A stretch of DNA of 64,000 nt from an uncultured Christensenella sp. (GCA_910585705.1 CAJUER010000001.1:55342-119341); one strand, 5' to 3'. Counted from the stretch's first letter, positions 4,647 to 64,000 are shown. Translations and numbers: made by a program. The notes: generated by a model from the letters alone, not told the origin.

Positions 4647-4668
4647 AAAATTCTCCTTTTATATGTAA

Positions 4669-6305: not shown

Positions 6306-6314
6306 TGATATAAT
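6306..6314 (+). promoter_or_regulatory. extended -10 element (TGaTATAAT) for proS
   Basis: TGATATAAT lies 20 nt upstream of the proS ATG, with AAAGGAGAA RBS at 6321-6329. No well-spaced -35. Confidence 0.35.
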
Positions 6315-6333
6315 TTAACGAAAGGAGAATTTT

Positions 6334-7761
6334 ATGGCAAAGGAAAGTTTTGTTGAACAGGTTGCGGACATTGAAAAGGATTTTCCGCAGTGGTATACCG
6401 ATGTTGTTTTAAAGACGGGGCTTGTGGATTACGGTCCCGTAAAGGGCACTATGATTATCCGTCCTTACGGCTATGCCATATGGGAAAACATACAGTCGGA
6501 AATGGACGCGCGCTTTAAAGCTACGGGTCACAAAAACGCATATTTTCCGCTTTTAATACCTATGAGCTATTTCACCAAAGAAGCCGAACACGTCGAAGGC
6601 TTCGCGCCCGAAGTGGCGGTGGTTACGCACGCAGGCGGAGAAGAACTTTCCGAGCCGTTGGCAATCCGCCCCACGTCGGAAACGATTATAGGCAGTATGT
6701 ATTCCAAATGGATACAGTCGTACAGGGATTTGCCTGTTCTTATAAATCAGTGGGCGAACGTTATGCGCTGGGAAAAAACAACGCGCCCCTTTTTGCGCAC
6801 TTCCGAATTCTTATGGCAGGAAGGACACACCGCCCACGTCACCGAAGAAGAGGCGATGGAAGAGACGATGAAAATGCTTTCGGTGTATAAGGAGTTTGCC
6901 GAAAACGTTTTGGCAATTCCCGTCATCTGCGGCAGGAAGACGGAGAAAGAAAAGTTTGCAGGCGCGGTTGCGACCTTCGGAATGGAAGCCATGATGAAGG
7001 ACGGCAAAAGCTTGCAGTCGGGCACGTCGCATTACTTCGGGCAGAATTTTGCAAAAGCGTTCGATATAAAATATCTCGATAAAGACGGCGTGCAAAAGTA
7101 CGCCTACACCTCAAGCTGGGGCACCTCGACGCGTATGATAGGCGCGCTTATAATGGCGCACGGCGACGCGCGCGGACTTGTTCTGCCCCCCAAAGTCGCT
7201 CCGCATCAGGTCGTAATCGTTCCCATCGCGGCGAAGAAGGGCGGCGTTATGGAAGCCTGTGCCGATATAAAATCGCAGCTTGAAAAAGCGGGTGTGCGCG
7301 TTATTTTCGACGATACGGACAACAGTCCCGGCTGGAAGTTCAATGAGTGGGAAATGAAGGGCGTTCCTTTGAGAATCGAGCTCGGCCCGCGCGATCTGGA
7401 AGCGGGCAAGGCGCTTATATTCCGCCGTGACACGCTTGAAAAACAGGAGGTCGCAATTTCCGCAATAGTTGAGGAAACGGCAAACCTTCTTAAAGAAGTT
7501 CAAAAGGATATGCTCGAAGCGGCTCGCGTCCGCCGCGATGCTAAAACGGTTTACGCCGCAGACCTTAAAGGAATTTTAGACGGCGTAGACGGCGGCAATT
7601 TCGTGAAAGCGGGTTGGTGCGGTTGCCGCGAATGCGAGGATAAAATAAAGGCGGAAACAGCCGCGACGGCAAGGGTCTTTGCCGAAGGCGAAACAGCGGA
7701 AAAATGCGCCGTGTGCAGTAAGAATGCCAAGCATATGGTAATTTTTGCGAGAGCCTATTAA
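6334..7761 (+). CDS. proS: proline--tRNA ligase (archaeal/eukaryote-like short form)
   Basis: 475 aa class II aaRS. RPTSET and FRTSEFLWQEGHT motifs, C-terminal Zn-type Cys cluster and terminal Tyr. Confidence 0.9.
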   Translation: MAKESFVEQVADIEKDFPQWYTDVVLKTGLVDYGPVKGTMIIRPYGYAIWENIQSEMDARFKATGHKNAYFPLLIPMSYFTKEAEHVEGFAPEVAVVTHAGGEELSEPLAIRPTSETIIGSMYSKWIQSYRDLPVLINQWANVMRWEKTTRPFLRTSEFLWQEGHTAHVTEEEAMEETMKMLSVYKEFAENVLAIPVICGRKTEKEKFAGAVATFGMEAMMKDGKSLQSGTSHYFGQNFAKAFDIKYLDKDGVQKYAYTSSWGTSTRMIGALIMAHGDARGLVLPPKVAPHQVVIVPIAAKKGGVMEACADIKSQLEKAGVRVIFDDTDNSPGWKFNEWEMKGVPLRIELGPRDLEAGKALIFRRDTLEKQEVAISAIVEETANLLKEVQKDMLEAARVRRDAKTVYAADLKGILDGVDGGNFVKAGWCGCRECEDKIKAETAATARVFAEGETAEKCAVCSKNAKHMVIFARAY

Positions 7762-7780
7762 ACATAACCGAAAGACAAAA

Positions 7781-7811
7781 GCGGCGGCGCAATTCTGCGC
7801 CGCCGCTTTTA
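7781..7811 (+). terminator. intrinsic terminator of proS
   Basis: GCGGCGGCGCA-attc-TGCGCCGCCGC 11-bp stem followed by TTTTATTT. Confidence 0.8.
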
Positions 7812-7830
7812 TTTAAAAACGTCAATAATT

Positions 7831-7862
7831 TAAAAAATAAGGACTTCCGAAAGGAAGCCCTT
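7831..7862 (-). terminator. intrinsic terminator of the minus-strand ABC operon
   Basis: GGGCTTCC-tttc-GGAAGTCC on the minus strand, followed by TTATTTTTT. Confidence 0.6.
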
Positions 7863-7878
7863 GAATTGTAAAAATAAG

Positions 7879-8685
7879 TTATTTTGTAATTTTCTTTTCT
7901 ATGACGGTGACTATTCCGTACATTCCGCCTGCAAGCACGCAGAGTATAAAAGTAGCCGTCATAACAAGGTCAAGACGGAAAACCTGCCCGCCGTAAACTA
8001 TTAAGTATCCGAGCCCCGCTTTCGAAACGATGTATTCGCCCATGATCGAGCCTATCCAGCTAAGTCCGACCGCTACCTTCAACGTGTTTACGAGAGTGGG
8101 GAAGGAAGCGGGGATAATCAGCTTTCTCAGCGTTGTGGCACGGCTTGCGCCCATCGACTTCATTAAAAGCAGTTTGGTTTTATCTACGGCGATAAAGCCC
8201 GAAAGCATATTCATCGTGCAGACGATAATCGAAACAAGCACCGTCATGAAAATTATCGCGTCGTAGCCCGTGCCTATCCAGATTATGATAAGCGGACCGA
8301 GCGCAATTTTGGGCAGAGAGTTGAGCACGACGATGTAAGGCTCGGCAATCTTCCTCACGGTCTCGCTCGACCAAAGGATTATAGCCGCCGCATAACCTAA
8401 AATTATGGCTATGGCAAAGCCCACAAAAGTTTCCATAAGCGTTACGCCTATGTGGTAGAACAGCGTGCCGCCCTTGTACAAGTCGGCAATGGTTTTTGCT
8501 ACGCGCGAGGGCGAGCTTATGATAAAGGGGTCTATAACCTTGAACTGCGCCAAAAGCTCCCACACGCCGAGAAATATAACCAAAATCAGCGCCCTTGCAA
8601 GCACGACGATAATTTTTTTGTTTCTGTTCTTTTTCAGGTACGCGAGGTGCTCGCGCGAGTAGTTGTTGTTCTTCTTGTTTTTCAT
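7879..8685 (-). CDS. ABC transporter permease (NitT/TauT, SsuC-like)
   Basis: 268 aa, about 6 TM segments, in an operon with the ATPase and an NMT1/THI5-like binding protein. Confidence 0.8.
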   Translation of the reverse strand: MKNKKNNNYSREHLAYLKKNRNKKIIVVLARALILVIFLGVWELLAQFKVIDPFIISSPSRVAKTIADLYKGGTLFYHIGVTLMETFVGFAIAIILGYAAAIILWSSETVRKIAEPYIVVLNSLPKIALGPLIIIWIGTGYDAIIFMTVLVSIIVCTMNMLSGFIAVDKTKLLLMKSMGASRATTLRKLIIPASFPTLVNTLKVAVGLSWIGSIMGEYIVSKAGLGYLIVYGGQVFRLDLVMTATFILCVLAGGMYGIVTVIEKKITK

Positions 8686-8709
8686 AAGTTTATTACCTTT
8701 AAGCGTTTG

Positions 8710-9435
8710 TTAAATTCCCAGCTCTTTTCTCAGGATTTCGAACGTTGCGGAAAACTCCGCGCATTCGCGCCGTTTTTTGGGGCTTCCTTCGCCGAAAGTT
8801 ATCAAATGCTCCGCGACGACCGTTGCGGGTCTTGCCGACAGCACGACGACTTTGTCTGAAAGCGCAATCGCTTCGGATATGTCGTGCGTGATTAAAAGCG
8901 CGGCTTTTTTCTCGCTCTTGATAATGCCCTGAACGTCGTCGCAGACTTCCAGCCTCGTCTGATAGTCGAGCGCGGAAAACGGTTCGTCCAAAAGCAGAAT
9001 TTCGGGCTCGGCGGCAAGCGTCCTTATAAGCGCAACTCTCTGGCGCATACCGCCCGAAAGTTGCGAAGGCGTCTTTTTAAGGAAATCCTTCAAGCCGTAC
9101 TTTTCGGCAAGCTCTACGGCGCGCGCACGTTTTTGCGCGGTGTTGCGTTTTTTGACTTCGAGCGGGAGAAAGATATTCTGTTCCACCGTCCGCCAAGGAA
9201 ACAGCGCGTCGCGTTGCAGCATATATCCGAATTCGCCGTCGCCGCGAATTATCTGCCCTGCGGACGGGGACAAAAGCCCCGCCGCGAGCGACAGAATGGT
9301 GGTTTTTCCGCATCCGGAAGGACCGATTACCGAAACGAATTGTCCGTCTTCCACGCGGAAATTCAGGTCCTTTACGGCAGTGGTTTCGCCCTGTTTTGTA
9401 TGATAGGTATATGAGATATTATCGAATATAAGCAT
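8710..9435 (-). CDS. ABC transporter ATP-binding protein (NitT/TauT family)
   Basis: 241 aa. Walker A GPSGCGKTT, signature LSGGMRQR, Walker B LLLDEPFSALD. Confidence 0.9.
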   Translation of the reverse strand: MLIFDNISYTYHTKQGETTAVKDLNFRVEDGQFVSVIGPSGCGKTTILSLAAGLLSPSAGQIIRGDGEFGYMLQRDALFPWRTVEQNIFLPLEVKKRNTAQKRARAVELAEKYGLKDFLKKTPSQLSGGMRQRVALIRTLAAEPEILLLDEPFSALDYQTRLEVCDDVQGIIKSEKKAALLITHDISEAIALSDKVVVLSARPATVVAEHLITFGEGSPKKRRECAEFSATFEILRKELGI

Positions 9436-9437
9436 AT

Positions 9438-10433
9438 TTATGCGTAAATTTCTTCGTACACTTTATGCGCCGTCTCCGTCAGAACCAAATCGCCGAAGGC
9501 AACGCGTTTTTCAAGTTCGCCCGCAAGCTCTATAACGTCCTGCAAGCGCGTGAAGGAGGCTTCCTTCATAGCCATATCGGTAACCCATGCGTCTATCGAC
9601 TTGTAGCTGTCAAGCGAGGTTTTTACGCTTGCTTCGCTTGTGCCGTCAAAGTAAGGCGTAAGCAGTTTCGCAACATCCGCGCTGTCGTTTGCAAGCAGGT
9701 ACTTCGTCGCTTTGGTCACCGCGCGTAAAAGCCCTTCGATTTTGTCGCCGTGCTTGTTGATATAGCTGTCCTTCGCTATAAAGCAGGTGTAGGGGATTTC
9801 GCCCGACTCTTTTCCGACGGAAGCAACTATGTGACCTTTGCCTTCCGCTACATAGTTTGAAGCCGCAGGCTCGAACATAGTGCAGTAGTCGCCCGTGCCG
9901 CCCTCGAACGCCGCAGTCATCATATTGAAGTTAACATTGGTAACGAAGTTGGCGTTTACTTTCTGGGTTTTGCAAACGTATTCGAAAGTCATAAAGGGCA
10001 CGCCGCCGGGTCTTCCCGCAAGCACGTTCTTGCCTTCCAGGTCGCTCCATTTAAAGTCGGGTTGGGCGGTCCTTCCCACGAGGAAGCTGCCGTCGCGCTT
10101 TGTTAGCTGACCGAATACTTTGGGCGTGTCGGTCGTTCCGCCGACTGCAACGTAGATTGCCGCTTCGGGACCGCAGAAGCCTATATCCGCCGCGCCGGAA
10201 AGCACCGCCGCCATAGTATTGTCCGCGCCGCCGCCGTTCGTCAGTTCGATTTCTATGTTTTCCTCATCGAAGTATCCGAGAGCGTCCGCAAGATACAAGG
10301 GGGCGTAAAACACCGAGTGAGTGACTTCATTAATCTTGATAAGCTTATCGTTCTTTTTACAGCCCGTGAAGGCAAAGGTAAGCACCGCCGCCATACACGC
10401 CGTAAGTAACAAACAGAGAATTTTCTTTTTCAA
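9438..10433 (-). CDS. ABC transporter substrate-binding lipoprotein (NMT1/THI5-like)
   Basis: 331 aa. TTG start, lipobox LTFAFTGC, AAGGAG about 15 nt upstream. Adjacent to its ATPase (2-nt gap). Confidence 0.75.
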   Translation of the reverse strand: MKKKILCLLLTACMAAVLTFAFTGCKKNDKLIKINEVTHSVFYAPLYLADALGYFDEENIEIELTNGGGADNTMAAVLSGAADIGFCGPEAAIYVAVGGTTDTPKVFGQLTKRDGSFLVGRTAQPDFKWSDLEGKNVLAGRPGGVPFMTFEYVCKTQKVNANFVTNVNFNMMTAAFEGGTGDYCTMFEPAASNYVAEGKGHIVASVGKESGEIPYTCFIAKDSYINKHGDKIEGLLRAVTKATKYLLANDSADVAKLLTPYFDGTSEASVKTSLDSYKSIDAWVTDMAMKEASFTRLQDVIELAGELEKRVAFGDLVLTETAHKVYEEIYA

Positions 10434-52180: not shown

Positions 52181-52208
52181 AAGCGAACCTGAAAAGGTTC
52201 GCTTTTTT
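52181..52208. terminator. bidirectional intrinsic terminator closing the fructan locus
   Basis: AAAAAAGCGAACC-tgaaaa-GGTTCGCTTTTTT. Confidence 0.85.
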
Positions 52209-52248
52209 AACTGCGCTTAAAATATATTTATTAAAAGAATAATTAATT

Positions 52249-52815
52249 TTACTGTTTTTTTATAAAGACGTAGTAATCGTAATATTTTGTTCCGTCGTGA
52301 CCTATAAGCGGTTCGTCTGATTTAACATATCCTATTGATTTCAATGCCGTAATGCGCTCCGTAGCCGAAGGTATTGCTTTTGTAGCCACTTTTTTACATC
52401 CGAACATTTCAAACGATGGTATCGTAATCAGCGATAAAATGCTTTCGGCATCCTCCGTGTTTTCGTAATCGCTACGCAAATCAAGTCTGATAAGTCCGCA
52501 ATCGGTATAATAGTCTTTTTCGTTGCGTAGAAATTCTTCTATCGTACCGATAGCTTCTTTCGTTGTTTTATCTACTATGGCGAACCTTACAAACCAACCG
52601 TTTTCGTAAGCTTGCTTCCAAAAGTCCAACGCCTGACTCATACGTTCGAGCGTAGCATAATAAAAATCATCGCCGTGACAGTTGTCGCCGTTAAAAAAAG
52701 GTACGGCTTTTTTATCGCTGTAAACCTTAAATAAATCGCTTAAATCTCTGTCGTCTATCGGTCGCAAAATAAATTTATTGTTTTGCAGTATAGGACAGTT
52801 TTCATAAATATTCAT
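52249..52815 (-). CDS. GNAT-family N-acetyltransferase
   Basis: 188 aa. FILRPIDDRDLSDLFKVYSD N-terminal pattern typical of RimJ/RimL-like GNATs. GGAGC RBS. Confidence 0.65.
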   Translation of the reverse strand: MNIYENCPILQNNKFILRPIDDRDLSDLFKVYSDKKAVPFFNGDNCHGDDFYYATLERMSQALDFWKQAYENGWFVRFAIVDKTTKEAIGTIEEFLRNEKDYYTDCGLIRLDLRSDYENTEDAESILSLITIPSFEMFGCKKVATKAIPSATERITALKSIGYVKSDEPLIGHDGTKYYDYYVFIKKQ

Positions 52816-52840
52816 AAAATTTAAAGCTCCTGGTAGTGTC

Positions 52841-52987
52841 TTATAATTTGATTATAATATAAATAAGCGCCGAATGCAACTCTATTAAAAATTTTTCAAC
52901 CTTTCGGTTAAACGCCGTCGACTCTTTTTCGGAAATAAAATGATTGCCTTTAATAACCGTAAATTCGTCGTTGGTTACGCCTTTCGG
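52841..52987 (-). pseudogene. 3-prime remnant (48 codons) of an alpha/beta-hydrolase gene
   Basis: Minus-strand frame reads PKGVTNDEFTVIKGNHFISEKESTAFNRKVEKFL..., matching the usual C-terminus of alpha/beta hydrolases (catalytic His in G-x-H-F, E-x-P-x-x-F-N-x-x-V-x-x-F-L). An in-frame TAA sits immediately upstream at 52988-52990, where AT-rich DNA begins. No start codon. Confidence 0.4.
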
Positions 52988-53196
52988 TTAAATAATTATT
53001 TTAACTCTACCGCCGGTAGAGTTTTAAATTTATCCGGTAGAGACGGAATTTATATTGTAGAATTTAGTTTTTTTAAAGTTTAGTTTTTATTTTAAATCGT
53101 ATAATTAAATCTATTAAAAGTAGGGTGTAATTGAATTTGTTATTATTTATAATGAAATTGATAAGTTGAAATAAACAATAAAAAAAGGAGCTTTCA

Positions 53197-54066
53197 ATGA
53201 ATAAAGTAAAAATAATAACCGATAGTTGTTGCAGTTTGTCGCTGGAAAAATTAAAGCAGTTTGATATTGATTTTGTTCAAATGAGCTTTACTGTAAACAA
53301 TAAAAATTTTAATGCTTATGAACACCCGATTAAAGATGGGCAAAAATTTTATGATGAGCTTGCAAAATCAAAAAATTGTTCTACAAGTTGCGTCAACCCT
53401 TACACGTTTTCCGCAATATTTGAAAAATACGTCAAATTCGGTTATGACGTGGTATATATCGGTATATCAAGCGGAATGAGCGCAACTTATAAAAATGCAG
53501 TAGTTTCGGCGAAAGAAATCAATACTGCTTTTGGCCGACACGTTTGGGTGGCTGATAGTTTGTCAGGAAGTTACGGGATTGCTTTAATGCTTGAATATGC
53601 CGTTAAACTTCGCAATGAGGGTAAAACTGCTGAGGAAATATTTGAGTCGATAGACAAAATCCGTATGAACGTGTTTGCAGTGTTTGTGCCAAGTGATTTG
53701 ATATTTTTAAACCGTTCGGGAAGAATAAACAGATTTGTTGCAAGTATCGGAACTTTGCTCAAAGTAACGCCGGTTATAACAGCCAATGATAAAGGCGAAC
53801 TTAAATTGCTTGCCAAATGTATCGGAAGAAAAAAAGCGATAAAGACGATTCAAGATTTTATTTTACAGAAAGCGTGTTTGGAAAATGAACGCAGAATTTA
53901 TATTGGACATACAGGCGTGAAAGAAGACGCGGAAAGACTTGCGGAATTTATAAAAGCAAATACCGATATTAAAGACGTTGTTGTGGACTTAATTGACTAT
54001 ACTATGGGTTGTAACTGCGGACCTTACACTCTCGCCGTTTTCGGGAAATTAAAGGTAGAGCGGTAA
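53197..54066 (+). CDS. DegV-family fatty-acid-binding protein
   Basis: 289 aa. AAAGGAG RBS. IITDSCCSL start block and ISSGMSATY motif typical of DegV. Confidence 0.85.
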   Translation: MNKVKIITDSCCSLSLEKLKQFDIDFVQMSFTVNNKNFNAYEHPIKDGQKFYDELAKSKNCSTSCVNPYTFSAIFEKYVKFGYDVVYIGISSGMSATYKNAVVSAKEINTAFGRHVWVADSLSGSYGIALMLEYAVKLRNEGKTAEEIFESIDKIRMNVFAVFVPSDLIFLNRSGRINRFVASIGTLLKVTPVITANDKGELKLLAKCIGRKKAIKTIQDFILQKACLENERRIYIGHTGVKEDAERLAEFIKANTDIKDVVVDLIDYTMGCNCGPYTLAVFGKLKVER

Positions 54067-54085
54067 CAAAATAAGCAAAATTTAA

Positions 54086-54124
54086 AAGCGGACACGTTTT
54101 GATAAAACGGGCCCGCTTTACTTT
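54086..54124. terminator. imperfect long hairpin between degV and the minus-strand gene string
   Basis: AAGCGG..CGTTTT-gat-AAAACG..CCGCTT, with T-rich flanks on both strands. Confidence 0.45.
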
Positions 54125-54231
54125 GTAAAAAATTAAAGCAAAAAAAATTATTCTTTGTCAAACTCCGCCGTCTTATTTTATCAATAGCCCGAACTTTAAA
54201 GTCTTGTCAAATGCAGCGGAACGTAAATAAT

Positions 54232-54660
54232 TTAAAAATTTTTGCAACTTAAATAAATGTGGCATACGGCAAAAATAACGGAAAAGAAAATCAACGGAAT
54301 GTTTGCCGTCACAATGCCGCTGAATATGAATATACAAGACGGAATTATCGAAAGCGACAATGCTTTTAATTTGTCGTTTCTGTTCCAACATATAATCCAA
54401 AAAATCAAATATGCCAAGCATAAACCGCCGTTTACTGACAAATAGACGGTAAGCGCATTATCAAACCAAAAGTTAAAAAATGTATACGGAATATTAAAAA
54501 TCATTAAAACAAAACAGCCGTATATGCCGATTTGTTCCAAGATTTCAACCGTTTTATTTCGGTAGGAGTTTTCGTTATTTTTATGTTTTGCGGCATAAAT
54601 AATATTCGGTATCATAATGATTGCCATTATAATAAGCCCGTAATAATTAAACCAACTCAT
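54232..54660 (-). CDS. small 4-TM membrane protein, unknown function
   Basis: I prefer the ATG at 54660 (MSWFNYYGLII..., GGAG 10 nt upstream) over the TTG at 54693. 142 aa, four hydrophobic segments. Confidence 0.45.
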   Translation of the reverse strand: MSWFNYYGLIIMAIIMIPNIIYAAKHKNNENSYRNKTVEILEQIGIYGCFVLMIFNIPYTFFNFWFDNALTVYLSVNGGLCLAYLIFWIICWNRNDKLKALSLSIIPSCIFIFSGIVTANIPLIFFSVIFAVCHIYLSCKNF

Positions 54661-54801
54661 ACTGTCAATGCTCCAAAGAAAAGCCCAAAACAATTCCTGC
54701 GGGGTTCGTTTCGGGCTATTGCTGGCGGGCAGTCATCACCCGAATTTGAACTTTTTATGTATAAAGAGCATTTCGGGATAGAAATACTGTTATAAAACAC
54801 T

Positions 54802-55566
54802 TTAAGACTTCGTTATAGTGCCTTCCTTAATGTGATATTGCTTTCCATTTGTTTCGCAAAATAGAATCACTTTTTCAGCCATTTCATTAAAGAATTTTTT
54901 ATAATCTTTATATTGCGAAACTTTTGCATTGTAATTTAGTCTCCCAAAAATTATTTTATCTACAAAGGATATTGCATCTATAATTTCATCTAAACTTTGT
55001 TCAATGAAATTAGGTGTGGGATATGGTTCAATGCTTACCCATGTTTTGCATCCCGCTTCATGGAGATTTTTTAAAGATTGTATTCTTTCAACGTATGGAG
55101 CAGAGCCTGGCTCAATCTCTTTCCTAAAATCCTCATTAAGAGAAATCAAAGTTATGCCATATTCATTTTCATTTGACAATTCGCTAAGTTCAAACGGTAG
55201 CGTTCCTTTTGTAAGTGCTGTGCATTTAATTCCACTTTCATTTAATTTACGCATACACTGCGAACTTAAATCAGATATCTCAGGATAGTTGTACATAAAT
55301 GGGTCTGTGGTAAAACAAAGTTGTACGGATTGAATTTTATCTTTCAATTTGGGTATTTCTATATCAAGCAATTCTAAAGCATTACCAATAAGTTTGGGAC
55401 AGCACCAATCCTCATAAGTTTTAGCTTTACCAAACCTTTTTGCCATCATCATAGCATAGCACGGATATTTACATCCATGCGAACACCCTTCGGCGATATT
55501 TATTGTATAATCACCATATTCAACGCCCGTCTTATAAAGCAAACTTTTTCGCATTATTTTTTCCAT
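54802..55566 (-). CDS. three-Cys-motif / SPL(COG1533)-like radical-SAM-fold protein with non-canonical CX3CX3C
   Basis: 254 aa. GCSHGCKYPCYA near the N-terminus, then blocks laid out like SPL-type radical-SAM barrels (VQLCFTTDPFMY, ALTKG, ISLNEDFRKEIEPGSAP..RI, WVSIEPYP). RBS AAAGGA inside the end of the upstream gene. Confidence 0.5.
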   Translation of the reverse strand: MEKIMRKSLLYKTGVEYGDYTINIAEGCSHGCKYPCYAMMMAKRFGKAKTYEDWCCPKLIGNALELLDIEIPKLKDKIQSVQLCFTTDPFMYNYPEISDLSSQCMRKLNESGIKCTALTKGTLPFELSELSNENEYGITLISLNEDFRKEIEPGSAPYVERIQSLKNLHEAGCKTWVSIEPYPTPNFIEQSLDEIIDAISFVDKIIFGRLNYNAKVSQYKDYKKFFNEMAEKVILFCETNGKQYHIKEGTITKS

Positions 55567-55572
55567 TTTTTA

Positions 55573-56700
55573 TTATCCTTTAATATCATAATAATCGGAA
55601 GTATAGTTACTTTTCCTAACACCATCATTTAACTTAACCAGTATACCGTCTTCAATCAACGCTTCAAATACATGCTTCTTTAAATGACTTTTTCGTAACA
55701 TCGTTTTCTCCAATATAGGGAGTGCAATATCTTGATATGAAACATGGTTTTTATTTGGCAATCCAAGAATTATCTTTTTTGCGGATTCGGCATTGCAACT
55801 GATGATATATGCTTCATTATCTTTAGCAAATTGCTCTTCCATTATTGGGGTAAAAAATGATAACTGGTTTGTGTCGATTTTGCGAGGATTGCGATAATAA
55901 GATGCACCATTAAATGTTGTCCAAAGAGCGTCTTTGAGAACTTCCAATCCTTTATCTTTAGGAGTTATGTAAATAATTTGGTAAAGCTCCGTATTCGTTT
56001 CCGTATGGAATTCATAATTAAAACTATATTTCATTTTTCCAGTCTTTAATTGGGTGATAATATAGTTTACTAATTCATTTTTGTTGTTAATATTTGCGTT
56101 TGGATTATCAATTACATTATCAATCCTTGTATCCATATCATTATTTCTATTTCTTACCCAATCACTGGTGAAGAGATTAAAAAGAAGCTCACAATAATAT
56201 TGCTGGCAAAATTTCTTTAAGGTAGGGATATGCACAGTACCGAAATCATATGGATCTACATATAGTAATGTTGTTTGTGGATATGAAAACCTCTCTTTAT
56301 TTTGAAGCAAAATTGATAAGTAACCATTTACATCTTTTTGTGAGATGAATATTTTTAAGTTTGGTAGTTTGGTTTTATACACTATGTTAATGACTTCCTT
56401 AAGCACCTCTATTCGCTTTGCGTCAATATCATTTAAGTATAGGTTAAATACACGATCTTTGTGAATAGCCGCAGACTGTATAAATAATTTTAAAACCTCG
56501 ATGGATGTGCAAAAATCTCCATCTTGATAAACCCCAGCATTGGACATACAATCAATAAAATTAATACCTTCGACAAATTGAGCATTGCCTAAAACATACA
56601 ACCAATTTTGTACATAGTTTTTAACATATTTAATTTTATTAGTTGTTTGCGGTTTTTTAAGATCTAACAACTTTTTATATTTCTTTACCAATTCTTGCAT
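55573..56700 (-). CDS. TcmP-like (three-Cys-motif partner protein-like), probable Rossmann/methyltransferase fold
   Basis: 375 aa. N-terminal K-x-x-Y-V-x-x-Y-x-x-x-W pattern followed by INFIDCMSNAGVY (motif-I-like), LYLNDID (motif-II-like acidic) and LLYVDPYDFG (DPPY-like). Recognised from memory of family TIGR04474, not searched. Confidence 0.45.
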   Translation of the reverse strand: MQELVKKYKKLLDLKKPQTTNKIKYVKNYVQNWLYVLGNAQFVEGINFIDCMSNAGVYQDGDFCTSIEVLKLFIQSAAIHKDRVFNLYLNDIDAKRIEVLKEVINIVYKTKLPNLKIFISQKDVNGYLSILLQNKERFSYPQTTLLYVDPYDFGTVHIPTLKKFCQQYYCELLFNLFTSDWVRNRNNDMDTRIDNVIDNPNANINNKNELVNYIITQLKTGKMKYSFNYEFHTETNTELYQIIYITPKDKGLEVLKDALWTTFNGASYYRNPRKIDTNQLSFFTPIMEEQFAKDNEAYIISCNAESAKKIILGLPNKNHVSYQDIALPILEKTMLRKSHLKKHVFEALIEDGILVKLNDGVRKSNYTSDYYDIKG

Positions 56701-56703
56701 AAC

Positions 56704-57051
56704 TTACTCCGAAACTTTGTTGATAATCGATTCGATAAAATCAATTTCCTCATATGTGAGGTGCTTTTTAACATCAGTACCTTTTGAAAATAAAGTTTTG
56801 AATCCTTGTGCCATCAAGAAATTTTCAGCATTTACGTAATATTGCTGAAAGGTAATGGGCGGATTATTATTTACTGTATTCCACACGAGTGTTTCCACGC
56901 AATATTTTTGCATTAGACTGTTGATATGATTTAGCATTTCATCAAATTGTTGAGTGTTATAATAAAATCGCAATTTTTCCACATCATCGATGAAATCAGC
57001 AATTTCTTTAATATCTTTATAGTGTTCAAAAATAGATTTATAATCTTTCAT
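56704..57051 (-). CDS. hypothetical 115-aa protein (orphan, helical, acidic)
   Basis: ATG with GGAG 11 nt upstream. 27 nt after the res stop and 3 nt before the next gene. No recognisable motif. Confidence 0.5.
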   Translation of the reverse strand: MKDYKSIFEHYKDIKEIADFIDDVEKLRFYYNTQQFDEMLNHINSLMQKYCVETLVWNTVNNNPPITFQQYYVNAENFLMAQGFKTLFSKGTDVKKHLTYEEIDFIESIINKVSE

Positions 57052-57078
57052 AGAATCAACACTCCAATAGTATGTAGG

Positions 57079-60036
57079 CTATTCCCTAAACAAATCTTCA
57101 ACAATTTCAACCATTTTATCGCTGTGGAGCTGCTTTCTGTAACGAACATTAGGGACTTCTCGTTGCATTTCTTCAAATAGTTTTTGCGCGCAAGTAATTT
57201 TACGCACTTCTTCCGGGTCAAGCTCGCTATTTTCTTTGTCTTTTGTTTCGACAATCAAATTCAGTTGCTTGCTTCCGTCTTTCTTTTTGACGATATACAT
57301 AAAATCGGGGCTATACGTTCCGTCGGCATAGGTCGGTATTCGTACCGTGCGTTTCGGTATTTTGCCGAATACTTCCACTTCGGCTATTTGCGATTTTATA
57401 TCAAGCGTAATATTGTCTTTTTCAAGCTGTGAATCGTAACAGCAAGCATCATAGAGGTAGTTATCCAAAACCGCTGTATCAGAAGTAAATACTCCGACAT
57501 CATTACGAATTATAGATTTTTTTAGACCGTTCTCATCGCAAAGCGGATCATTGACTTTTACGTCTATCTTTTCATAAGAATACCGTTCATTGAATTTTGC
57601 AATAAACCATAGTCTATATTCATCTACAAATCTTTGCAATGTCTGTTTGCTAAAATATTCGGAAGGTATTGCTCGCGTAGCAAAATGTTCGCATAATGCC
57701 GAATGCATCAACTTAATCGGTATATTTGTGCGTTGCTGTACTTCTCTCAAAAAGACAGAGTACGGCAAAACCTTTTTTACGGTAAAAGAAGTGCCTGCAA
57801 TATCCTCAAAATCAACGCTACCATCAGCGTCGACTTTCTTTGATTTCGCTATTTTAGTTGTAACCGTAGAGCGCCCGTCAATATTTTTTGCAAGGATATC
57901 GGCTATGGCTCTTTTTAGCACATCATCGTCAATTTTTTCAATATGTAAATAGTACTTTTGGTTTATAAGTTTCCATAATTTTTCGAGCTTGCCGAAAATA
58001 TTTTCACGAATACCAATGCGCGCTGTGTTCTGATTTTTGGATTTGTTGATGTCAATAATTTTACCATTAGACAAAGCCTTAAACAAATCGGGATAGGCAA
58101 GCATAAATTCATCTTTTTTATCTTCGATTAAACTAAAGTCTATCGGATCGATAAAGGCTTTAGCAATAATATCACGCAAGAACTCTCGAATATCAATGTG
58201 TTTTGCCTTTGCATATTTTTCAAGGAATTCTCTTGTAATTTTCAGTTCAAGACTAGCATCGCCGTTAATCTCTTTCTTTAATTTATCGGCAAAATCTTTT
58301 TCAGAATAATCAATAATATAACGCAAATACATTTGTTCGTCGCTGATGCGATTACCAAACTCATCTACCGGCAAACGCAACCCGCGCCCGACTTCTTGCA
58401 ATTTGCTTGTTTCACTTCCGCTACTGCGAAGTTTGGCAATGACAAAAACATTCGGATTATCCCAACCTTCTTTCAACGTCCACTTGGAGAAAATGAAGCG
58501 TGTAGGCTCAAAATTTCCATTATCGTCTTTAATACGTATAATTTTGTCTTTTGCTCGAAGAACCTTATCAACTTCGTTTTTAACATCGTCGCTATCGGTA
58601 TTGTTGTCCTCAGAGAAGTATGCAGCGATGGTGTCAGATAAATGATCCAAAGAATATTCAAGATAGGCTTTATACTCTTTGTCCCGTTCTGAAGAAGTAA
58701 GGGACCGAATTTCTGTCTTCAACTTGGTTAGCAGTAAATCTTCAAAGTCTTTCCTTAAATGTCCGTCATTTCGGAAAGATTCTATACTGTCAATAAAGAA
58801 GAGTGAAAGGGTTTTAATTCTATTCAAACGTCTGAAATTATCACGCTCTTTTTCAAAATGCCTGTCGAGAGCTAACGATAGCATCATTTTTTGGAAAGTA
58901 TCACTAAATACTTGCGGATAAATTGAATCGCTCGTATGCAAATCCATACCGTTTGAAAGAGTGATAATGCCTTTATCGATTTTATCTACGGTAACTCCTA
59001 TAAGACTATCATCTATTTCAGCAAGAGACTGACCTATGACTAAATCATACGCCTTCTTGGTTAATTCGTTTTGTAATCTTACCGTTTTTTCTTCACCTTT
59101 ATTTGACGTAATAGACAAAACTTTAATTTTAACTTGTTCTTTCAGTTTGGCTTCTTCGGCAATATATTCAACTTCTACGCCCTTGATAAGATTGTCGTTG
59201 AAGGCATCGCAAGAACCGAGATTAAATACTACGTTTTCGTAATCGAAAACTCCTTTCGATATTTCGGGGAACGTAGCGCCGTACCGAATAACACATTGCG
59301 GTTTTATATTGTCTATCAAGCATTTGAAGGTTTTTTGTGTGCGTGTAAATTTATGCGGCTCGTCGATAATCACAAAAGGGGCAATTTCGCGCAATGTTTC
59401 ATACGGCTTGGTATATACACCCAAAAGCGTTTGATCATAACTTGCACCCATAGTTGCCTTTGATGTAAGCATACCGCTGTTTATTAAAAGCACATCGATT
59501 CTGTTGCCGCCTATGTCTGTCGCGTTAGCAAAATCGACGATGGCAGAAGGAATCATCTTTCTGCCTTTTGTGCTTTTTTGAGAATCCAAAACGTGCAAGC
59601 ATAATTGAGTACCGCCATATAACGCCTGCAAATCTGTCCTCATATAACTCGATGTCAGGAACGACTTTGCACCTTCTTTAATGGGAACGGTAGGAACAAG
59701 TACGATAAATTTATTGATTCCGTAGTGTTTATGTAATTCAAACATAGTGCGGGTATATACATACGTTTTACCCGTACCTGTTTCCATTTTAACGTCTATA
59801 TTCAGATAATCGCTATCCGTATAATTGCGCTTATAGTAATCCGGCAATCTATAATCGTCGGCATAAAAGTCTCCGTTTTGAACAGCGGCTACATTGCGTT
59901 TAATAGCTGGATCGGAAAAATCAACACGTAAGCACTTATTTTTATCTGCACTTGGTATGAAACCAACGCCCGCGAATACACCGCAAACGGCATTTACGGC
60001 ATTCAACTGATGCGGTAAATTATTTTCTAATCTCAT
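57079..60036 (-). CDS. res: Type III restriction enzyme, Res subunit
   Basis: 985 aa. SF2 helicase motif I METGTGKTY, motif II IIDEPHKF, later motifs KLQEVGRGLRL, and C-terminal PD-(D/E)xK nuclease SPDFMY...LIVETKDKE. GAGGTG RBS overlapping the mod stop. Confidence 0.9.
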   Translation of the reverse strand: MRLENNLPHQLNAVNAVCGVFAGVGFIPSADKNKCLRVDFSDPAIKRNVAAVQNGDFYADDYRLPDYYKRNYTDSDYLNIDVKMETGTGKTYVYTRTMFELHKHYGINKFIVLVPTVPIKEGAKSFLTSSYMRTDLQALYGGTQLCLHVLDSQKSTKGRKMIPSAIVDFANATDIGGNRIDVLLINSGMLTSKATMGASYDQTLLGVYTKPYETLREIAPFVIIDEPHKFTRTQKTFKCLIDNIKPQCVIRYGATFPEISKGVFDYENVVFNLGSCDAFNDNLIKGVEVEYIAEEAKLKEQVKIKVLSITSNKGEEKTVRLQNELTKKAYDLVIGQSLAEIDDSLIGVTVDKIDKGIITLSNGMDLHTSDSIYPQVFSDTFQKMMLSLALDRHFEKERDNFRRLNRIKTLSLFFIDSIESFRNDGHLRKDFEDLLLTKLKTEIRSLTSSERDKEYKAYLEYSLDHLSDTIAAYFSEDNNTDSDDVKNEVDKVLRAKDKIIRIKDDNGNFEPTRFIFSKWTLKEGWDNPNVFVIAKLRSSGSETSKLQEVGRGLRLPVDEFGNRISDEQMYLRYIIDYSEKDFADKLKKEINGDASLELKITREFLEKYAKAKHIDIREFLRDIIAKAFIDPIDFSLIEDKKDEFMLAYPDLFKALSNGKIIDINKSKNQNTARIGIRENIFGKLEKLWKLINQKYYLHIEKIDDDVLKRAIADILAKNIDGRSTVTTKIAKSKKVDADGSVDFEDIAGTSFTVKKVLPYSVFLREVQQRTNIPIKLMHSALCEHFATRAIPSEYFSKQTLQRFVDEYRLWFIAKFNERYSYEKIDVKVNDPLCDENGLKKSIIRNDVGVFTSDTAVLDNYLYDACCYDSQLEKDNITLDIKSQIAEVEVFGKIPKRTVRIPTYADGTYSPDFMYIVKKKDGSKQLNLIVETKDKENSELDPEEVRKITCAQKLFEEMQREVPNVRYRKQLHSDKMVEIVEDLFRE

Positions 60037-60044
60037 AATTCACC

Positions 60045-61970
60045 TCAATACCGCAAGATTGGCTCAATCGAAGTTCTGTTTTTCAATGTCTTCAAGTTAG
60101 AGCGTAACGCCGTATTTGTTGTATAGCTAAAAGCATATCCGTATTCAATAATTCTGTCTATGTTCAGTTCGTGAGCTTCAATTTTTCTTACAAGCTCAAT
60201 AATAGACTTTTCAGGCATATCCTCAATCAAGTACAGGCTTGTACCGACTTTGTTATCTGAGAGAAGATAAGCAGTGTAACCGTGCAAATCAACTGTTTGC
60301 ACCATTGCATTAAAGCCGTAGCCGTCTTTTATTTTCCAAGTTTCTAAAACGGTATCCACACCGAATTTACTTTTTATATCTTCTCCGTCGATAGGAAGCA
60401 TAGGATTAAATTCGGTTATTTTATCCAATGTGTTTTTATCCGTTGCTTTCAAGTAATATGTTTTAAAACTCAAATCCACACTTGATGCACTGTCGGGGTT
60501 TGCTTTTTCAATCTTCTTCGCCGCAAGCTGTATCCTTTTTCTGCCAATTTCATCTATCGTAGTATAGCCATTTTCTTCCGCTATAGAGCCGTGAGAAACT
60601 TGCTCGGACAACTGTACCATAATAAATCTATGATTGGTTGTATTAATGGTATTATATTGCATAATTGCATGTGCCATAGAAGCTGAACCTGAGAAGAAAT
60701 CTAAAATAATATTCTCCTCATCATCATTTGTCGCCATTTGACAGATGCGCGCAAGCATCTCGATAGGTTTTGGATAATCGAAAACTTTGCATCCAAACAA
60801 CTCTTTTACTAATAAAGTACCTTTTTCTGTATTAGTATCTTTATCCCACCAAACAGAACGAGCCATTTTACGCGCTTCTCGATATTTTTCAACTATTTGA
60901 AAACCGCCATTTCGCATTGCTTTGGCTTTTATATTAATATTTAAGTTTGCTATTGCTTTATCTTTTCCCCATCTCCAAACAGTTTTAACTCCTTGTGATT
61001 CTAATGGATATAACTTTATCCAATCTTCTTTAGGAGTTAAAGAAATATCATATAACCCATTTTCATCTGCACGAGATGAGTCAATGTAGAATGGATAGTA
61101 TAAATTGGGACGATTTTCCTTGTTGAATTTTATGTTACGATTTCTTAATTCTCTTAATTCATACCCTCCGAATTCGTCAAATTGAGTAAACTCGCCGTCT
61201 TCATCGTCAATCAGGTTTATTTCACATTTATCTGTTTTTCTATAAGCGAGAATATAATCATTCATACGTGCAATACCACCATAATCTCGCCCTCTTGGAT
61301 TCGCAACAACTGTTATTTGTCCAATAAAGTTGCCTTCTCCAAATATCAAGTCGCAAAGCAATTTGGCATTTGTAATTTCATTATCATCTAAACTAATAAA
61401 AATGCATCCATCATTAGAAAGTAAATCTTTCGCCAACTCTAAACGTGGATACATAAAAGTAAGCCAAGCAGAGTGCGTGCTTTTACCTTGCATATCCAAA
61501 ACGCGCTGCGCCTCATCTTCTTCTATATTTATTTTTCTTGCAAGTTCTTCAGCAGTAAACTCAAATTTATCGTTATAAACAAAACCATCCGAGCCCGTGT
61601 TGTATGGGGGATCGATATAGATACACTTTATTTTTTCCGAATAGGAGTATTTCAAGTGTTGCAATGCATCGAGATTATCGCCTACGATATAGACATTTTG
61701 TGAATCGATATTTTTATTTTCTTCGTCGGGTAAAATAACAGTTTCGGAATCAAGACTCGCCAAATAACGGGCATAAGACTTGCCCAAGAAGTCAAGAGAA
61801 TAGCCCTCTTTCTTTATATCAACTTCTTCAGTCCTAATCAAGTCCTCAAACGTTTTCAAATCAAACTTGCCGTCTTTATCAAAGCATTGGGGAAAATCCT
61901 TTTTAAGAAGTTCTATTTCTCGGCTATTGACTTTTGCTTGAGAATTCTTTTCTATTGTTTCTTTTATCAT
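60045..61970 (-). CDS. mod: Type III DNA methyltransferase, Mod subunit (amino-MTase, beta-class motif order)
   Basis: CIYIDPPYNTGSDGF (motif IV) precedes ILDFFSGSASMAHA (motif I). I prefer the ATG at 61970 (GGAG 6 nt upstream); the ORF-track ATG at 61997 has no RBS and lies 12 nt from the predicted -10. Confidence 0.9.
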   Translation of the reverse strand: MIKETIEKNSQAKVNSREIELLKKDFPQCFDKDGKFDLKTFEDLIRTEEVDIKKEGYSLDFLGKSYARYLASLDSETVILPDEENKNIDSQNVYIVGDNLDALQHLKYSYSEKIKCIYIDPPYNTGSDGFVYNDKFEFTAEELARKINIEEDEAQRVLDMQGKSTHSAWLTFMYPRLELAKDLLSNDGCIFISLDDNEITNAKLLCDLIFGEGNFIGQITVVANPRGRDYGGIARMNDYILAYRKTDKCEINLIDDEDGEFTQFDEFGGYELRELRNRNIKFNKENRPNLYYPFYIDSSRADENGLYDISLTPKEDWIKLYPLESQGVKTVWRWGKDKAIANLNINIKAKAMRNGGFQIVEKYREARKMARSVWWDKDTNTEKGTLLVKELFGCKVFDYPKPIEMLARICQMATNDDEENIILDFFSGSASMAHAIMQYNTINTTNHRFIMVQLSEQVSHGSIAEENGYTTIDEIGRKRIQLAAKKIEKANPDSASSVDLSFKTYYLKATDKNTLDKITEFNPMLPIDGEDIKSKFGVDTVLETWKIKDGYGFNAMVQTVDLHGYTAYLLSDNKVGTSLYLIEDMPEKSIIELVRKIEAHELNIDRIIEYGYAFSYTTNTALRSNLKTLKNRTSIEPILRY

Positions 61971-62009
61971 ACCTGACTCCTTTGCCTTGAAAGACATTAT
62001 ACAAGTTTA

Positions 62010-62344: not shown

Positions 62345-62390
62345 CTTTTGTTAGATAAATTTTCACCTTCTTGATTGCAAAACCGAGAAT

Positions 62391-62828
62391 AAGTGTACTT
62401 GGTTATATGGGGATATACAAAGTTTTTTCGTCGTTTCGGTTGTATTTCTCAAAAAAGTGTCCTAGGAGATATAGAAGGGGTAAGAAAATTTTTTGAAAAA
62501 GTTTCGGTTCAGACCGTCAACTTTTTGCTATAACTGTGCTTGGTATAGTAGAGGGAGAAAGATTAAAGGTTGATGAAATTTTCGTCCACGCGTAAATATT
62601 TTCGAGATAAGTGTGCTTGGATAAGTGAAGGGAATTTTTCATTAGACCCCGAACTTTTAAAGAAAAGTGTGCTTGGTTATATAGAGGGGTAATAAAAAGT
62701 TTGCCTTAGACCGTGTACTTTTCGGGATATGTGTGCTTGGTTATATGGAGGGACTTGAAAATTCTTTTGAGAATTTCTACTCAGACCGCCACGTTTTGGA
62801 GATAAGTGTGCTTGGTTAAGTAGGGAGT
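62391..62828 (+). repeat. seven-unit degenerate bipartite tandem array (consensus AGACCG-N15-AAGTGTGCTTGGTTATATGGAGGG), non-coding
   Basis: Core copies start at 62391, 62455, 62532, 62609, 62665, 62729 and 62804 (spacings 64, 77, 77, 56, 64, 75 nt). An AGACC(G/C) box lies exactly 21 nt upstream of the core in four units (62511, 62644, 62708, 62783). Confidence 0.85.
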
Positions 62829-62863: not shown

Positions 62864-62892
62864 TTGACAAACAACTCCATATAGAGTAAAAT
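62864..62892 (+). promoter_or_regulatory. near-consensus sigma-A promoter
   Basis: TTGACA, 17-nt spacer, TAAAAT, directly after the last array unit and 55 nt upstream of the ATG at 62947. Confidence 0.65.
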
Positions 62893-62946: not shown

Positions 62947-63213
62947 ATGGCAACAGACAGGTCTATTAAAGACAAGCGTTATGAAGAAAAGCATAAGGAA
63001 GAGAGAAAAGCCAAGTATATGATTTGGGGTACGAGCGTACCGCGAAAGTATGCCGAAGAAATAAACGAGTTTTTGGCGAAGTACGGGTTTACCAAAGTGC
63101 AACTCATCGAAGCGGGGTTTAAGGCTTTGATTGACGAAGCGGCTGAAACGGATACTTCTCTTGCCAAGACTATGGACGGCTACGACGATTTCTTTGTATT
63201 GGAGAAAAAGTAA
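62947..63213 (+). CDS. hypothetical 88-aa charged protein, possibly a small DNA-binding (RHH-like) protein
   Basis: Good RBS and promoter. Basic N-terminus (KDKRYEEKHKEERKAK), then a beta-strand-like MIWGTSVP and two short helices. The fold guess is weak. Confidence 0.5.
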   Translation: MATDRSIKDKRYEEKHKEERKAKYMIWGTSVPRKYAEEINEFLAKYGFTKVQLIEAGFKALIDEAAETDTSLAKTMDGYDDFFVLEKK

Positions 63214-63313: not shown

Positions 63314-63478
63314 TTGGCTACGTGTATTACTCAGCAAACAGACTATGAAATAACACAAGAACAGATAGAAACAAGCGCAACAATATTAGCAAACATACTA
63401 CTCGACTTTGTAAAACAAAACGGTACTTCTATCTTATTCCCCGAAAGAGTATTCGGCAAAGGAGAACACAATGAATAA
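63314..63478 (+). CDS. possible 54-aa ORF (TTG start) translationally coupled to the recombinase gene
   Basis: Open frame from 63281. Its stop TAA 63476-63478 overlaps the recombinase ATG at 63471 (ATGAATAA). No ATG, weak start context. May be a gene remnant. Confidence 0.2.
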   Translation: MATCITQQTDYEITQEQIETSATILANILLDFVKQNGTSILFPERVFGKGEHNE

Positions 63479-64000
63479 ACGAGCGGTTATATATGCAAGA
63501 TTCAGCTCGCACACGCAAACGGAACAATCTATCGAAGGTCAGCTTCGGGAATGCTATGACTATGCCAAACGACACGACTTACTTATTGTCGGAGAGTACA
63601 TAGACCGCGCATTCACGGGTACAACTGACAAGCGTCCGAACTTCTTGCAAATGATAGAAGACAGCAAGAAAAAGACTTTCGATTATGTCCTTGTCTATCA
63701 ATTAGACCGATTTGCTCGTAACCGCTATGACAGCGCGAACTACAAAGCGAAGTTGAAAAAGAATGGCGTTCGTGTTCTTTCGGCAAAGGAAAACATTACC
63801 GAAGATGCGAGTGGCATTCTCATAGAAGGCGTTCTCGAAAGTATGGCGGAATATTATAGTGCCGAGCTTTCGCAAAAGGTACGGCGCGGTATTAGAGAAA
63901 GTTTGAGCAAAGGCTACTTCATTGGTGGATACAAGTTATTCGGCTATGACATCATAGACAAGCGTTGGATTATAAACCCGATTGAAGCCCCGATAGTCAA
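63471..64000 (+). CDS. large serine recombinase, N-terminal resolvase domain (runs off the right edge)
   Basis: AVIYARFSSHTQTEQSIEGQ catalytic-Ser block, VYQLDRFARN, AEYYSAELSQKVRRG. GGAGAACACA RBS. Confidence 0.9.
   Translation, partial: MNKRAVIYARFSSHTQTEQSIEGQLRECYDYAKRHDLLIVGEYIDRAFTGTTDKRPNFLQMIEDSKKKTFDYVLVYQLDRFARNRYDSANYKAKLKKNGVRVLSAKENITEDASGILIEGVLESMAEYYSAELSQKVRRGIRESLSKGYFIGGYKLFGYDIIDKRWIINPIEAPIV

Follow-up and report, generated by a model that had tools for sequence, protein, structure and literature searches.

When further genes follow a restriction-modification (R-M) pair without a break, do they belong to that R-M system, or have they been placed behind it? The question is raised by a locus in a 64,000-nt stretch of DNA from an uncultured Christensenella sp. 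(GCA_910585705.1 CAJUER010000001.1:55342-119341), hereafter the window, in which five minus-strand open reading frames (ORFs) run head to tail. These are mod, a Type III methyltransferase gene (60045-61997; 650 aa when read from 61997); res, encoding the Type III restriction subunit (57079-60036, 985 aa); a gene for a 115-aa protein that we call hinge (56704-57051); the gene for a 375-aa protein of the TcmP family (55573-56700); and the gene for a 254-aa radical S-adenosylmethionine (SAM)/DUF5131-like three-Cys protein, here rSAM (54802-55566). Our ORF listing agrees with a preliminary description of the locus, which took the last three genes, the tail, for a functional add-on to the Type III pair. 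We consider it fairly probable that the locus is a stacked defence operon on a mobile island, made up of a Type III R-M system, a hinge gene that marks an exchangeable slot and an autonomous TcmP-rSAM module. What we observe is modularity, exchange at defined breakpoints, the family identities of the proteins, conservation of the TcmP-rSAM pair and the frequency with which it adjoins R-M genes. The observation made in the preliminary description is confirmed by our analysis, and its interpretation is partly supported.

The division of the locus into modules is seen on comparison with sister islands at other loci (numbered L001 onwards). Where the cargo upstream of hinge (slot 1) differs, DNA homology to the window starts exactly at the hinge ATG (57051). 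It stops 15-55 nt ahead of the hinge stop codon (56720-56760) and resumes only in a 55-58 nt segment, 54780-54723, right after the rSAM stop codon. A conserved hinge block (57051-56720) parts two exchangeable cargo slots; from these breakpoints, 56720-54780 (TcmP and rSAM) is one exchangeable cassette and approximately 62346-57052 (mod and res) is another. L014 carries the same serine recombinase, 88-aa gene, mod, res (Res 95% identical to that of the window) and hinge (86%), followed by HamA and a helicase, i.e. Hachiman. In L015 the same mod, res (Res 97% identical) and hinge precede unrelated genes for 581- and 315-aa proteins; across these two islands the hinge protein is 84-86% identical to that of the window. 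Slot 1 changes as well: L009 (recombinase 93%, 88-aa gene 99%, hinge 83%) has a DpdF-like helicase instead of R-M, and LmuA/LmuB (Lamassu) after hinge; in L011, hinge is preceded by a Type II methyltransferase plus a 1329-aa T5orf172/ResIII/Eco57I enzyme and followed by a 1486-aa nSTAND3 protein; in L016, hsdM-hsdS, hinge and a gene for a 264-aa protein follow one another. Slot 2, which in the window holds TcmP and rSAM, thus also houses the validated systems Hachiman and Lamassu. Judged by the breakpoints, the tail consists of the hinge gene plus a separate TcmP-rSAM cassette and is no single three-gene unit, and the exchange of cassettes behind the same R-M and hinge genes refutes the idea that the tail is an add-on peculiar to Type III R-M. 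The simplest route for the exchange would be homologous recombination, with the hinge gene at one end and the terminal segment at the other.

Hinge keeps its place well beyond these islands. A profile search covering 1.84 billion representatives returned 137 clusters (87 at E <= 1e-10), all of them proteins of about 90-125 aa. We compiled contexts for 26 GTDB loci and used 29 loci for clustering. The first downstream genes of the 29 fall into 21 unrelated clusters; upstream there are 10 clusters among the 26 loci with a scored upstream gene, 19 of which belong to three R-M clusters. Among 21 loci with usable upstream ORFs, hinge is preceded by a Type IIG restriction enzyme-methyltransferase, along with a Type II methyltransferase, in 11 and by Type III mod and res in four. 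Across all loci, Type I, II, IIG and III R-M and the DpdF-like helicase are found upstream, and the slot's cassettes include Hachiman, Lamassu, nSTAND3, Mokosh and PD-T4-6; in the GTDB loci, PDC-S57, PD-T4-6, MkoA, mad6, Type IIG and PDC-S60 lie downstream together with many genes without known family. An rSAM homologue was found downstream of hinge in none of the 21 new GTDB hinge loci. The tie between tail and Type III R-M that had been proposed does not hold: hinge also follows other R-M types, and most TcmP-rSAM pairs have no Type III neighbour. Judged by position in these sequences, hinge is what stays constant where a restriction system gives way to a hypervariable downstream slot.

The hinge protein is predicted to be all-helical (AlphaFold2 model, pLDDT 83). 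It gave no significant match in Pfam, NCBIfam, PADLOC or PHROGs (best NsnC at 0.005), and Foldseek searches with its fold against the PDB and BFVD gave nothing below E = 1. Since the ratio of nonsynonymous to synonymous substitution rates (dN/dS) is 0.05-0.24 for res, hinge, rSAM and TcmP, the genes where it could be measured, hinge is under purifying selection, and we rejected the idea that it is a non-coding anchor. We also rejected the idea that it is a mere gene of the serine-recombinase scaffold, as neither that recombinase nor the 88-aa gene is present at most of the 26 GTDB hinge loci. The hinge protein could couple the downstream cassette to the restriction system or regulate it relative to that system. 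Two of the hinge-slot cassettes, L015 5387-8076 (581 + 315 aa) and L016 4120-4914, have no PADLOC or Pfam match; the L016-type family (264-275 aa) was seen again in L064 and L072-L074. On the same slot reasoning, these and several other hinge-slot genes of the GTDB loci, which were scanned in bulk, are candidate new defence genes.

The TcmP-rSAM pair, in turn, is conserved as a unit of its own. A TcmP profile yielded 29 GTDB loci, 27 of them usable, and in 26 of the 27 an rSAM homologue (55-82% identical) lies directly downstream of TcmP. In L023, TcmP is 44% identical to that of the window and its partner is a canonical DUF5131 protein (PF07505, 1e-99). An rSAM profile search found at least 563 GTDB species or stretches; the context counts come from the best 80 of these, 79 of which were scored (L088-L166). 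These best 80 (63-85% identical) span Firmicutes, Alphaproteobacteria, Akkermansia, Nitrospiraceae, Spirochaetes and Tenericutes. A same-strand ORF stands immediately upstream of rSAM in 76 of the 79 loci, with a median gap of -4 nt; 61 of these 76 partners resemble three TcmP subfamilies (375-, 390- and 416-aa types), and the TIGR04474 cut-off was passed by all ten partners tested (273-416 aa; seven unclassified ones of 273-319 aa, that of L157, and the 390- and 416-aa reference types). By gene order and spacing, TcmP and rSAM are a translationally coupled pair.

Within the pair, rSAM (63-85% identical across phyla) is far better conserved than its TcmP partner (24-75%) in L088-L166, and the closest matches of the window rSAM accompany TcmPs of the 390-aa subfamily and not of the window's own 375-aa subfamily. 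This points to swapping of TcmP partner subfamilies, i.e. recombination within the pair. That the pair is a phage gene set was considered and rejected, since the phage collection has only two uncultured fragments with close homologues. A putative phage, the uncultured 'Bacteriophage sp.' scaffold L046 (MT836112.1), encodes at 3080-10089 a 416-aa TcmP and an rSAM 62% identical to that of the window, followed by 739- and 971-aa ORFs.

What might the two proteins do? The 375-aa protein is a TcmP by profile (TIGR04474 1.2e-30, 107.4 bits against a cut-off of 53), and component A of two PADLOC entries matches it (PDC-M30A 3.9e-23, PDC-M41A 5.9e-7). Its AlphaFold2 model (pLDDT 89.6, pTM 0.87) retrieves class-I SAM methyltransferases in Foldseek, with the best TM scores for RlmJ (6qe5, 0.54 normalised by target) and the DUF519 structure 2oo3; TcmP adds an N-terminal helix and a C-terminal winged-helix-like domain to this RlmJ-like fold, and some homologues match a GMT-like winged helix-turn-helix (wHTH) domain at the C-terminus. 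The homologue alignment has the invariant motifs DCMxNAG.Y, ND, DVN and VDP[YF][DN]F, which fall on methyltransferase motifs I-IV (D50-x-M-x-N-A-G-x-Y, N90-D91, D123-x-N125 and D149-P-[YF]-[DN]-F153); the last of these occupies the spot of the amino-methyltransferase (D/N)PP(Y/F). The 254-aa protein exceeds the threshold of PF04055, the radical-SAM family (4.2e-10, 40.5 against 29.5 bits, residues 22-198). Component B of the PADLOC entries matches it weakly (3.1e-4 and 8.7e-5), over about 40 N-terminal residues only. Of the family guesses made earlier, TIGR04474 and PF04055 were borne out by profile search and PF07505 was not: the protein stays below the DUF5131 gathering threshold (21.4 against 28.9 bits, N-terminal 80 residues only), and we therefore treat it, on its sequence, as belonging to a sister family of DUF5131 and not as a member. 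Aligned with the DUF5131 protein of L023 (hhalign E 8.5e-6), the family has GC..GC..CYA..MAKR, TDPF, LTK and SIEP in common. Its invariant Cys motif is C28-x3-C32-x3-C36 (GCSHGCKYPCYA), and homologues are 55-90% identical across phyla. PDB sequence searches with the rSAM protein, the rSAM profile and the TcmP profile found no solved relative.

RlmJ is the 23S rRNA m6A2030 methyltransferase and flips out an adenine in RNA, and radical-SAM enzymes of the spore photoproduct lyase (SPL) clade act on DNA bases. From the RlmJ-like amino-methyltransferase fold, the DP[YF][DN]F signature at motif IV and the winged helix, we infer that TcmP is a SAM- and nucleic-acid-binding protein that presents a base in flipped-out form, on which the [4Fe-4S]/SAM partner of the SPL/DUF5131 clade would perform radical chemistry. 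This two-enzyme base-modifying activity on nucleic acid is our conjecture from fold and family. A radical-SAM megacluster takes in both SPL and DUF5131 (PMC9477430). Although not recognised earlier as a described system, the gene combination is the pair known from TIGR04474 ('three-Cys-motif partner'). It probably corresponds to PADLOC PDC-M30/M41 and would thus already be listed as an anti-phage candidate; its role in defence is that of a candidate only.

The R-M part of the run is conventional. Mod has the domains PF01555 (7.7e-28) and PF18273 (1.4e-22) and matches PADLOC MTase_III (1e-154); with motif IV (IDPPY) ahead of motif I (FFSGSAS) and an EcoP15I-type C-terminal domain, it has the layout of a beta-class N6-adenine methyltransferase. 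The Mod signatures reported earlier stand as to IDPPY and its order, and fall short at motif I, where FFSGSAS is no strict FxGxG. Res scores 1000 bits with NF012027 (1e-300; cut-off 564), matches PF04851, PF19778 and PADLOC REase_III (1e-237), and combines a superfamily 2 (SF2) helicase with a C-terminal PD-(D/E)xK nuclease directly after mod; the Res signatures that had been described are present (GTGKT, DEPH and PD...ETK). By domain content, mod and res are a complete, conventional Type III pair. The target-recognition region of mod, at about 61315-60712, shares no DNA homology with L002, L014 and L015, islands that are 88-95% identical elsewhere. The centre of mod thus looks like a target-recognition domain allele swap, which would change Type III specificity. 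TRF detected no phase-variable repeats in mod.

Are the five genes nevertheless one transcription unit? The junction sequences bear out the gaps and ribosome-binding sites reported earlier: 8 nt between mod and res, with GAGGTG over the mod stop codon; 27 nt between res and hinge (GGAG); 3 nt between hinge and TcmP (GGAG); and 6 nt between TcmP and rSAM (AAAGGA). AAGGAG stands before an alternative mod ATG at 61970, which is therefore the likelier start. None of the four junctions has a terminator-like site in our scan, in line with the reported lack of a stem-loop plus T-tract; this includes the res-hinge junction, where a terminator had been named as potential counter-evidence. Minus-strand matches of the scan lie within res, plus one weak 5-bp stem within the 115-aa ORF, and the first strong hairpin and U-run encountered after mod is an intrinsic terminator in the fold at 54717-54674 (minus strand), downstream of the last gene and in the host flank, just beyond the island end. 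Promoter-like sites from a consensus scan are not enriched over shuffled sequence (52 against 43.8 +/- 6.6). The shared AT-rich composition was also confirmed, with a G+C content of 30-39% over 52-63 kb against about 48% in the remainder of the window. All five proteins were found again together on other contigs, several of which carry the identical five-gene block, and from sequence conservation all five ORFs are genuine genes. Since the junctions are free of terminators and the starts are coupled, the idea of a single transcription unit is supported, and the five genes are probably co-transcribed as one long operon.

How tightly, then, is the TcmP-rSAM pair tied to R-M? On the TcmP side, a same-strand R-M system adjoins the gene in 8 of about 31 distinct contexts, namely Type III in the window, L033 and L038, Type I in L037, an MmeI IIG enzyme in L041 (gap of about 4 nt), an Eco57I-type enzyme in L042, HpaII Type II in L047 and a IIG enzyme in L049 (4-nt gap); about 23 of the 31 are without recognisable R-M. 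On the rSAM side, 19 of the 79 loci have a same-strand R-M gene within two genes (Type III in ten, three upstream and seven downstream; IIG in five; Type I in three; Type II in one), and the remaining 60 have no recognisable R-M. The proximity to R-M that tail homologues had been predicted to have is therefore there in part: about 25% of pairs abut R-M, with Type III commonest, a raw rate, uncorrected for that of other defence cassettes in these genomes, whereas about 75% do not, and hinge is absent from 77 of the 79 rSAM loci. Other neighbours of the pair are SoFic, PDC-M45, PDC-M19, DUF488, recombinases and metabolic genes, and in L052 the pair stands alone amid the latter.

Several points tell against a stacked operon with an autonomous nucleic-acid-modifying TcmP-rSAM module. 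The Type III matches cluster at the pair, with 18 of 22 ORF hits at gene positions +-1/+-2 and two at +-3; farther out, L110 alone contributes two hits at -4, one of them on the opposite strand, and positions 5-10 are free of hits although each distance bin offered 25-58 ORFs. R-M abutment is thus tighter and more frequent than diffuse co-residence on islands would give, and TcmP-rSAM may functionally depend on R-M or act in synergy with it. The hinge, TcmP and rSAM triplet recurs in two further architectures, the L080 type (Dcm methyltransferase and a 349-aa protein, hinge at 49% identity, a 390-aa TcmP and rSAM at 85%) and L157 (IIG, hinge, a 318-aa TcmP and rSAM). The rSAM Cys spacing, CX3CX3C, differs from the canonical radical-SAM CX3CX2C, and on sequence grounds cluster binding by this motif is plausible. 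In the literature on TcmP, DUF5131 and PDC-M30 we found annotation mentions only and no experiment on TcmP or DUF5131; an S. meliloti expression table lists the TcmP gene SMa2243 beside Hna (SMa2245). The radical-SAM defence system Ophion was considered and is unrelated to TcmP-rSAM.

An alternative is that mod, res and the tail form one integrated system; the tail would then provide this particular Type III enzyme with additional modification chemistry, a second layer of restriction, or control. Tight spacing on a single strand, shared composition, terminator-free junctions and the identical block on several contigs agree with this, as does Type III R-M directly upstream of the pair in L033 and L038 and next to rSAM in ten more loci; but L033 and L038 have no detectable hinge homologue, and in seven of the ten it is the pair that comes first and the Type III genes that follow. 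The same R-M and hinge genes bear Hachiman or another cassette instead, hinge goes with Type I, II and IIG systems and a DpdF-like helicase as well and precedes 21 different cassettes, and most pairs are without a Type III neighbour. An integrated system is thereby largely refuted, and we regard it as very improbable. Somewhat better placed, and in our view still rather unlikely, is a looser coupling, in which TcmP-rSAM is an accessory that works with any R-M enzyme, whether this is encoded in cis or in trans. One version is a guard that would be alerted when restriction enzymes in need of SAM fail or are blocked (e.g. by phage SAM lyases or Ocr-like proteins) and would so counter SAM depletion or anti-restriction by phages; another is a Type-IV-like complement attacking DNA whose modifications escape R-M. 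The adjacency counts above speak for it, and the adjacent systems are nearly all of SAM- or ATP-using types (Type III, Type I and Type IIG); both TcmP and rSAM are predicted SAM binders. There are also precedents: PrrC accompanies EcoprrI, and BrxU belongs to BREX. These are also discussed by Payne et al. (bioRxiv 10.1101/2024.01.29.577857), who defined PDC-M30/M41 by their location inside BREX, DISARM or Type I R-M, and as candidates only; we found no later test of their anti-phage activity in the literature. The tightness of the window-type pair to R-M agrees with this origin. However, roughly three quarters of the pairs stand without an R-M neighbour, the diversity of the R-M partners is too great for physical interaction, the adjacency rate is a raw one, and SAM sensing is speculative.

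The pair might alternatively have no part in defence and be a nucleic-acid modification or repair module (for an epigenetic or RNA mark, or for DNA lesions) that hitch-hikes on mobile elements, with hinge as a maintenance or regulatory gene. Homologues are annotated 'DNA repair photolyase', rSAM belongs to the SPL/Rv2578c/PA0069 neighbourhood (PMC9477430), its extreme conservation across phyla would fit, Bacteroides phages and archaeal viruses encode distant rSAM relatives, and one locus lies amid metabolic genes. Yet the other occupants of the slot are Hachiman, Lamassu, nSTAND3 and similar systems, the neighbours are mostly defence or mobile-element genes (SoFic, PDC candidates, R-M, recombinases), cultured phage genomes contain hardly any member of the subfamily, and its patchy distribution, suggestive of horizontal gene transfer, is typical of conflict systems; we hold a non-defence role to be improbable. 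We therefore favour the stacked defence operon, in which TcmP-rSAM would be a stand-alone nucleic-acid-modifying immune or conflict module and no R-M subunit, stacked behind R-M for co-expression and layered defence. A bolder version combines two claims, that the hinge family defines an R-M-anchored hypervariable slot for second-line defence that has not been described before, and that TcmP-rSAM is a new radical-SAM immune effector, working on nucleic acid offered by its methyltransferase-like partner and perhaps tied in function to SAM-dependent restriction enzymes; that both hold together is a tentative proposition, and we would not count on it.

The operon is cargo of an integrative island of about 10.6 kb which, by its gene content and ends, has a large serine recombinase and lies beside tRNA-Ser(UGA): the three-domain recombinase stands at one end, the ends are defined, and the flanks differ across hosts. 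In the window only the N-terminal part of the recombinase gene is present (63471-64000, plus strand, translation starting MNKRAVIYARFSS), breaking off where the window stops; in L001 the gene is complete, encodes 514 aa with Resolvase, Recombinase and Zn_ribbon_recom domains, and lies immediately against tRNA-Ser(UGA), an arrangement also found in L014. The recombinase stop codon overlaps the tRNA-Ser(UGA) at this end of the island, and at L001 1-573, beyond the window, four tandem units of about 100 nt precede tRNA-Ser, each opening with its 5' 18-mer GGAGAGATGGCAGAGTGG. At the other end, the conserved terminal segment (54723-54780, minus strand, ending GTTCAAATTCGGGTGATGACTGCCCGCCA) forms the right boundary of both slot 2 and the element. 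It is 89-98% identical in L009 and L015, where it lies downstream of unrelated cassettes. Homology halts at 54723 (GCCCGCCA) in L009, L002/L008 and L003/L005/L006, each of which then continues into a flank of its own; the match detected for L015 ends a few bases before 54723, and there, too, the flank differs. Read by eye, the flanks of L009, L003 and L015 likewise open with a hairpin and T-run. The right end, GTTCAAATTCGGG..GCCCGCCA, loosely resembles a tRNA 3' end; a tRNA-3'-derived origin of the 54723 end (GTTCAAAT...CCGCCA) was considered and not adopted, being suggestive at most.

Upstream of mod, a plus-strand gene for an 88-aa scaffold protein (62947-63213; no family match, 95-99% identical in L009 and L014) is transcribed divergently from the region's best promoter-like site, TTGACA-17-TAAAAT at 62864-62892. 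Between this divergent gene and mod lies a degenerate direct-repeat array (62389-62827) of 5-7 copies, with the core ATAACCAAGCACACTTAT followed by ..ACGGTCT.. and a spacing of 56-77 nt, in a region conserved in L009 and L014. The array has no Rfam match, and Rfam over 52-64 kb gave only sub-threshold noise; its place and repeats would suit an operator or iteron array through which the island operon is controlled. Low G+C (33-37%) extends past the island end over 52200-54700, with genes for a 142/153-aa membrane protein, DegV and a GNAT-like protein, and this stretch may be an older or separate insertion.

These findings bear on both annotation and discovery. Operon continuity behind an R-M system does not place the extra genes within that system. 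Pairs of the TcmP/DUF5131 type are widespread (more than 560 species for this subfamily alone), strongly conserved and horizontally mobile, and the slot shared with Hachiman and Lamassu, together with the repeated tight abutment to R-M, makes the pair a well-motivated candidate for a radical-SAM anti-phage mechanism. Hinge genes also offer a practical aid to discovery, since the DNA that follows them should be enriched in new defence cassettes.

How does the locus compare with known systems? Measured against an EcoP15I-like Mod2Res Type III system, the window mod and res lack no domain, stand in the canonical order, are coupled at their junction and are themselves nothing unusual; what differs is that the downstream genes are exchangeable and lie outside the Type III family definition. 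The module resembles the TIGR04474/PF07505 pair in that a 375-aa TcmP is directly followed by a three-Cys DUF5131 homologue of about 250 aa, but the canonical DUF5131 protein of L023 reads GCSKVTDGCKNCYA, i.e. C-x6-C-x2-C, where the window protein has C-x3-C-x3-C and scores below the PF07505 and above the PF04055 threshold. Likewise, component A of PDC-M30/M41 matches TcmP, and the window-type pair, too, is often attached to R-M; its second protein, however, matches PDC-M30B and PDC-M41B weakly and at the N-terminus only. RlmJ and DUF519 are among the best structural matches of the TcmP model, although TcmP has no detectable sequence similarity to solved structures and carries the extra N-terminal helix and C-terminal wHTH domain; spore photoproduct lyase shares with the window rSAM its placement in one radical-SAM megacluster. 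The island as a whole recalls the cargo hotspots of mobile elements, such as P2/P4 hotspots, hotspots of integrative and conjugative elements and integron cassettes, with conserved flanks around highly variable defence cargo and a site-specific recombinase. It differs from them in its two slots split by a protein-coding hinge, for which we found no description of a comparable dedicated junction-marker gene, and in that no attC-like site was found and the hinge family also occurs without the island's recombinase scaffold. Finally, as in 'guilt by embedding' (Payne et al., 10.1101/2024.01.29.577857), a second, unrelated defence module lies in or next to an R-M operon in the same orientation and is probably co-regulated with it; in the window the module is appended after the R-M genes and not nested among them, and a conserved small hinge gene marks the junction.

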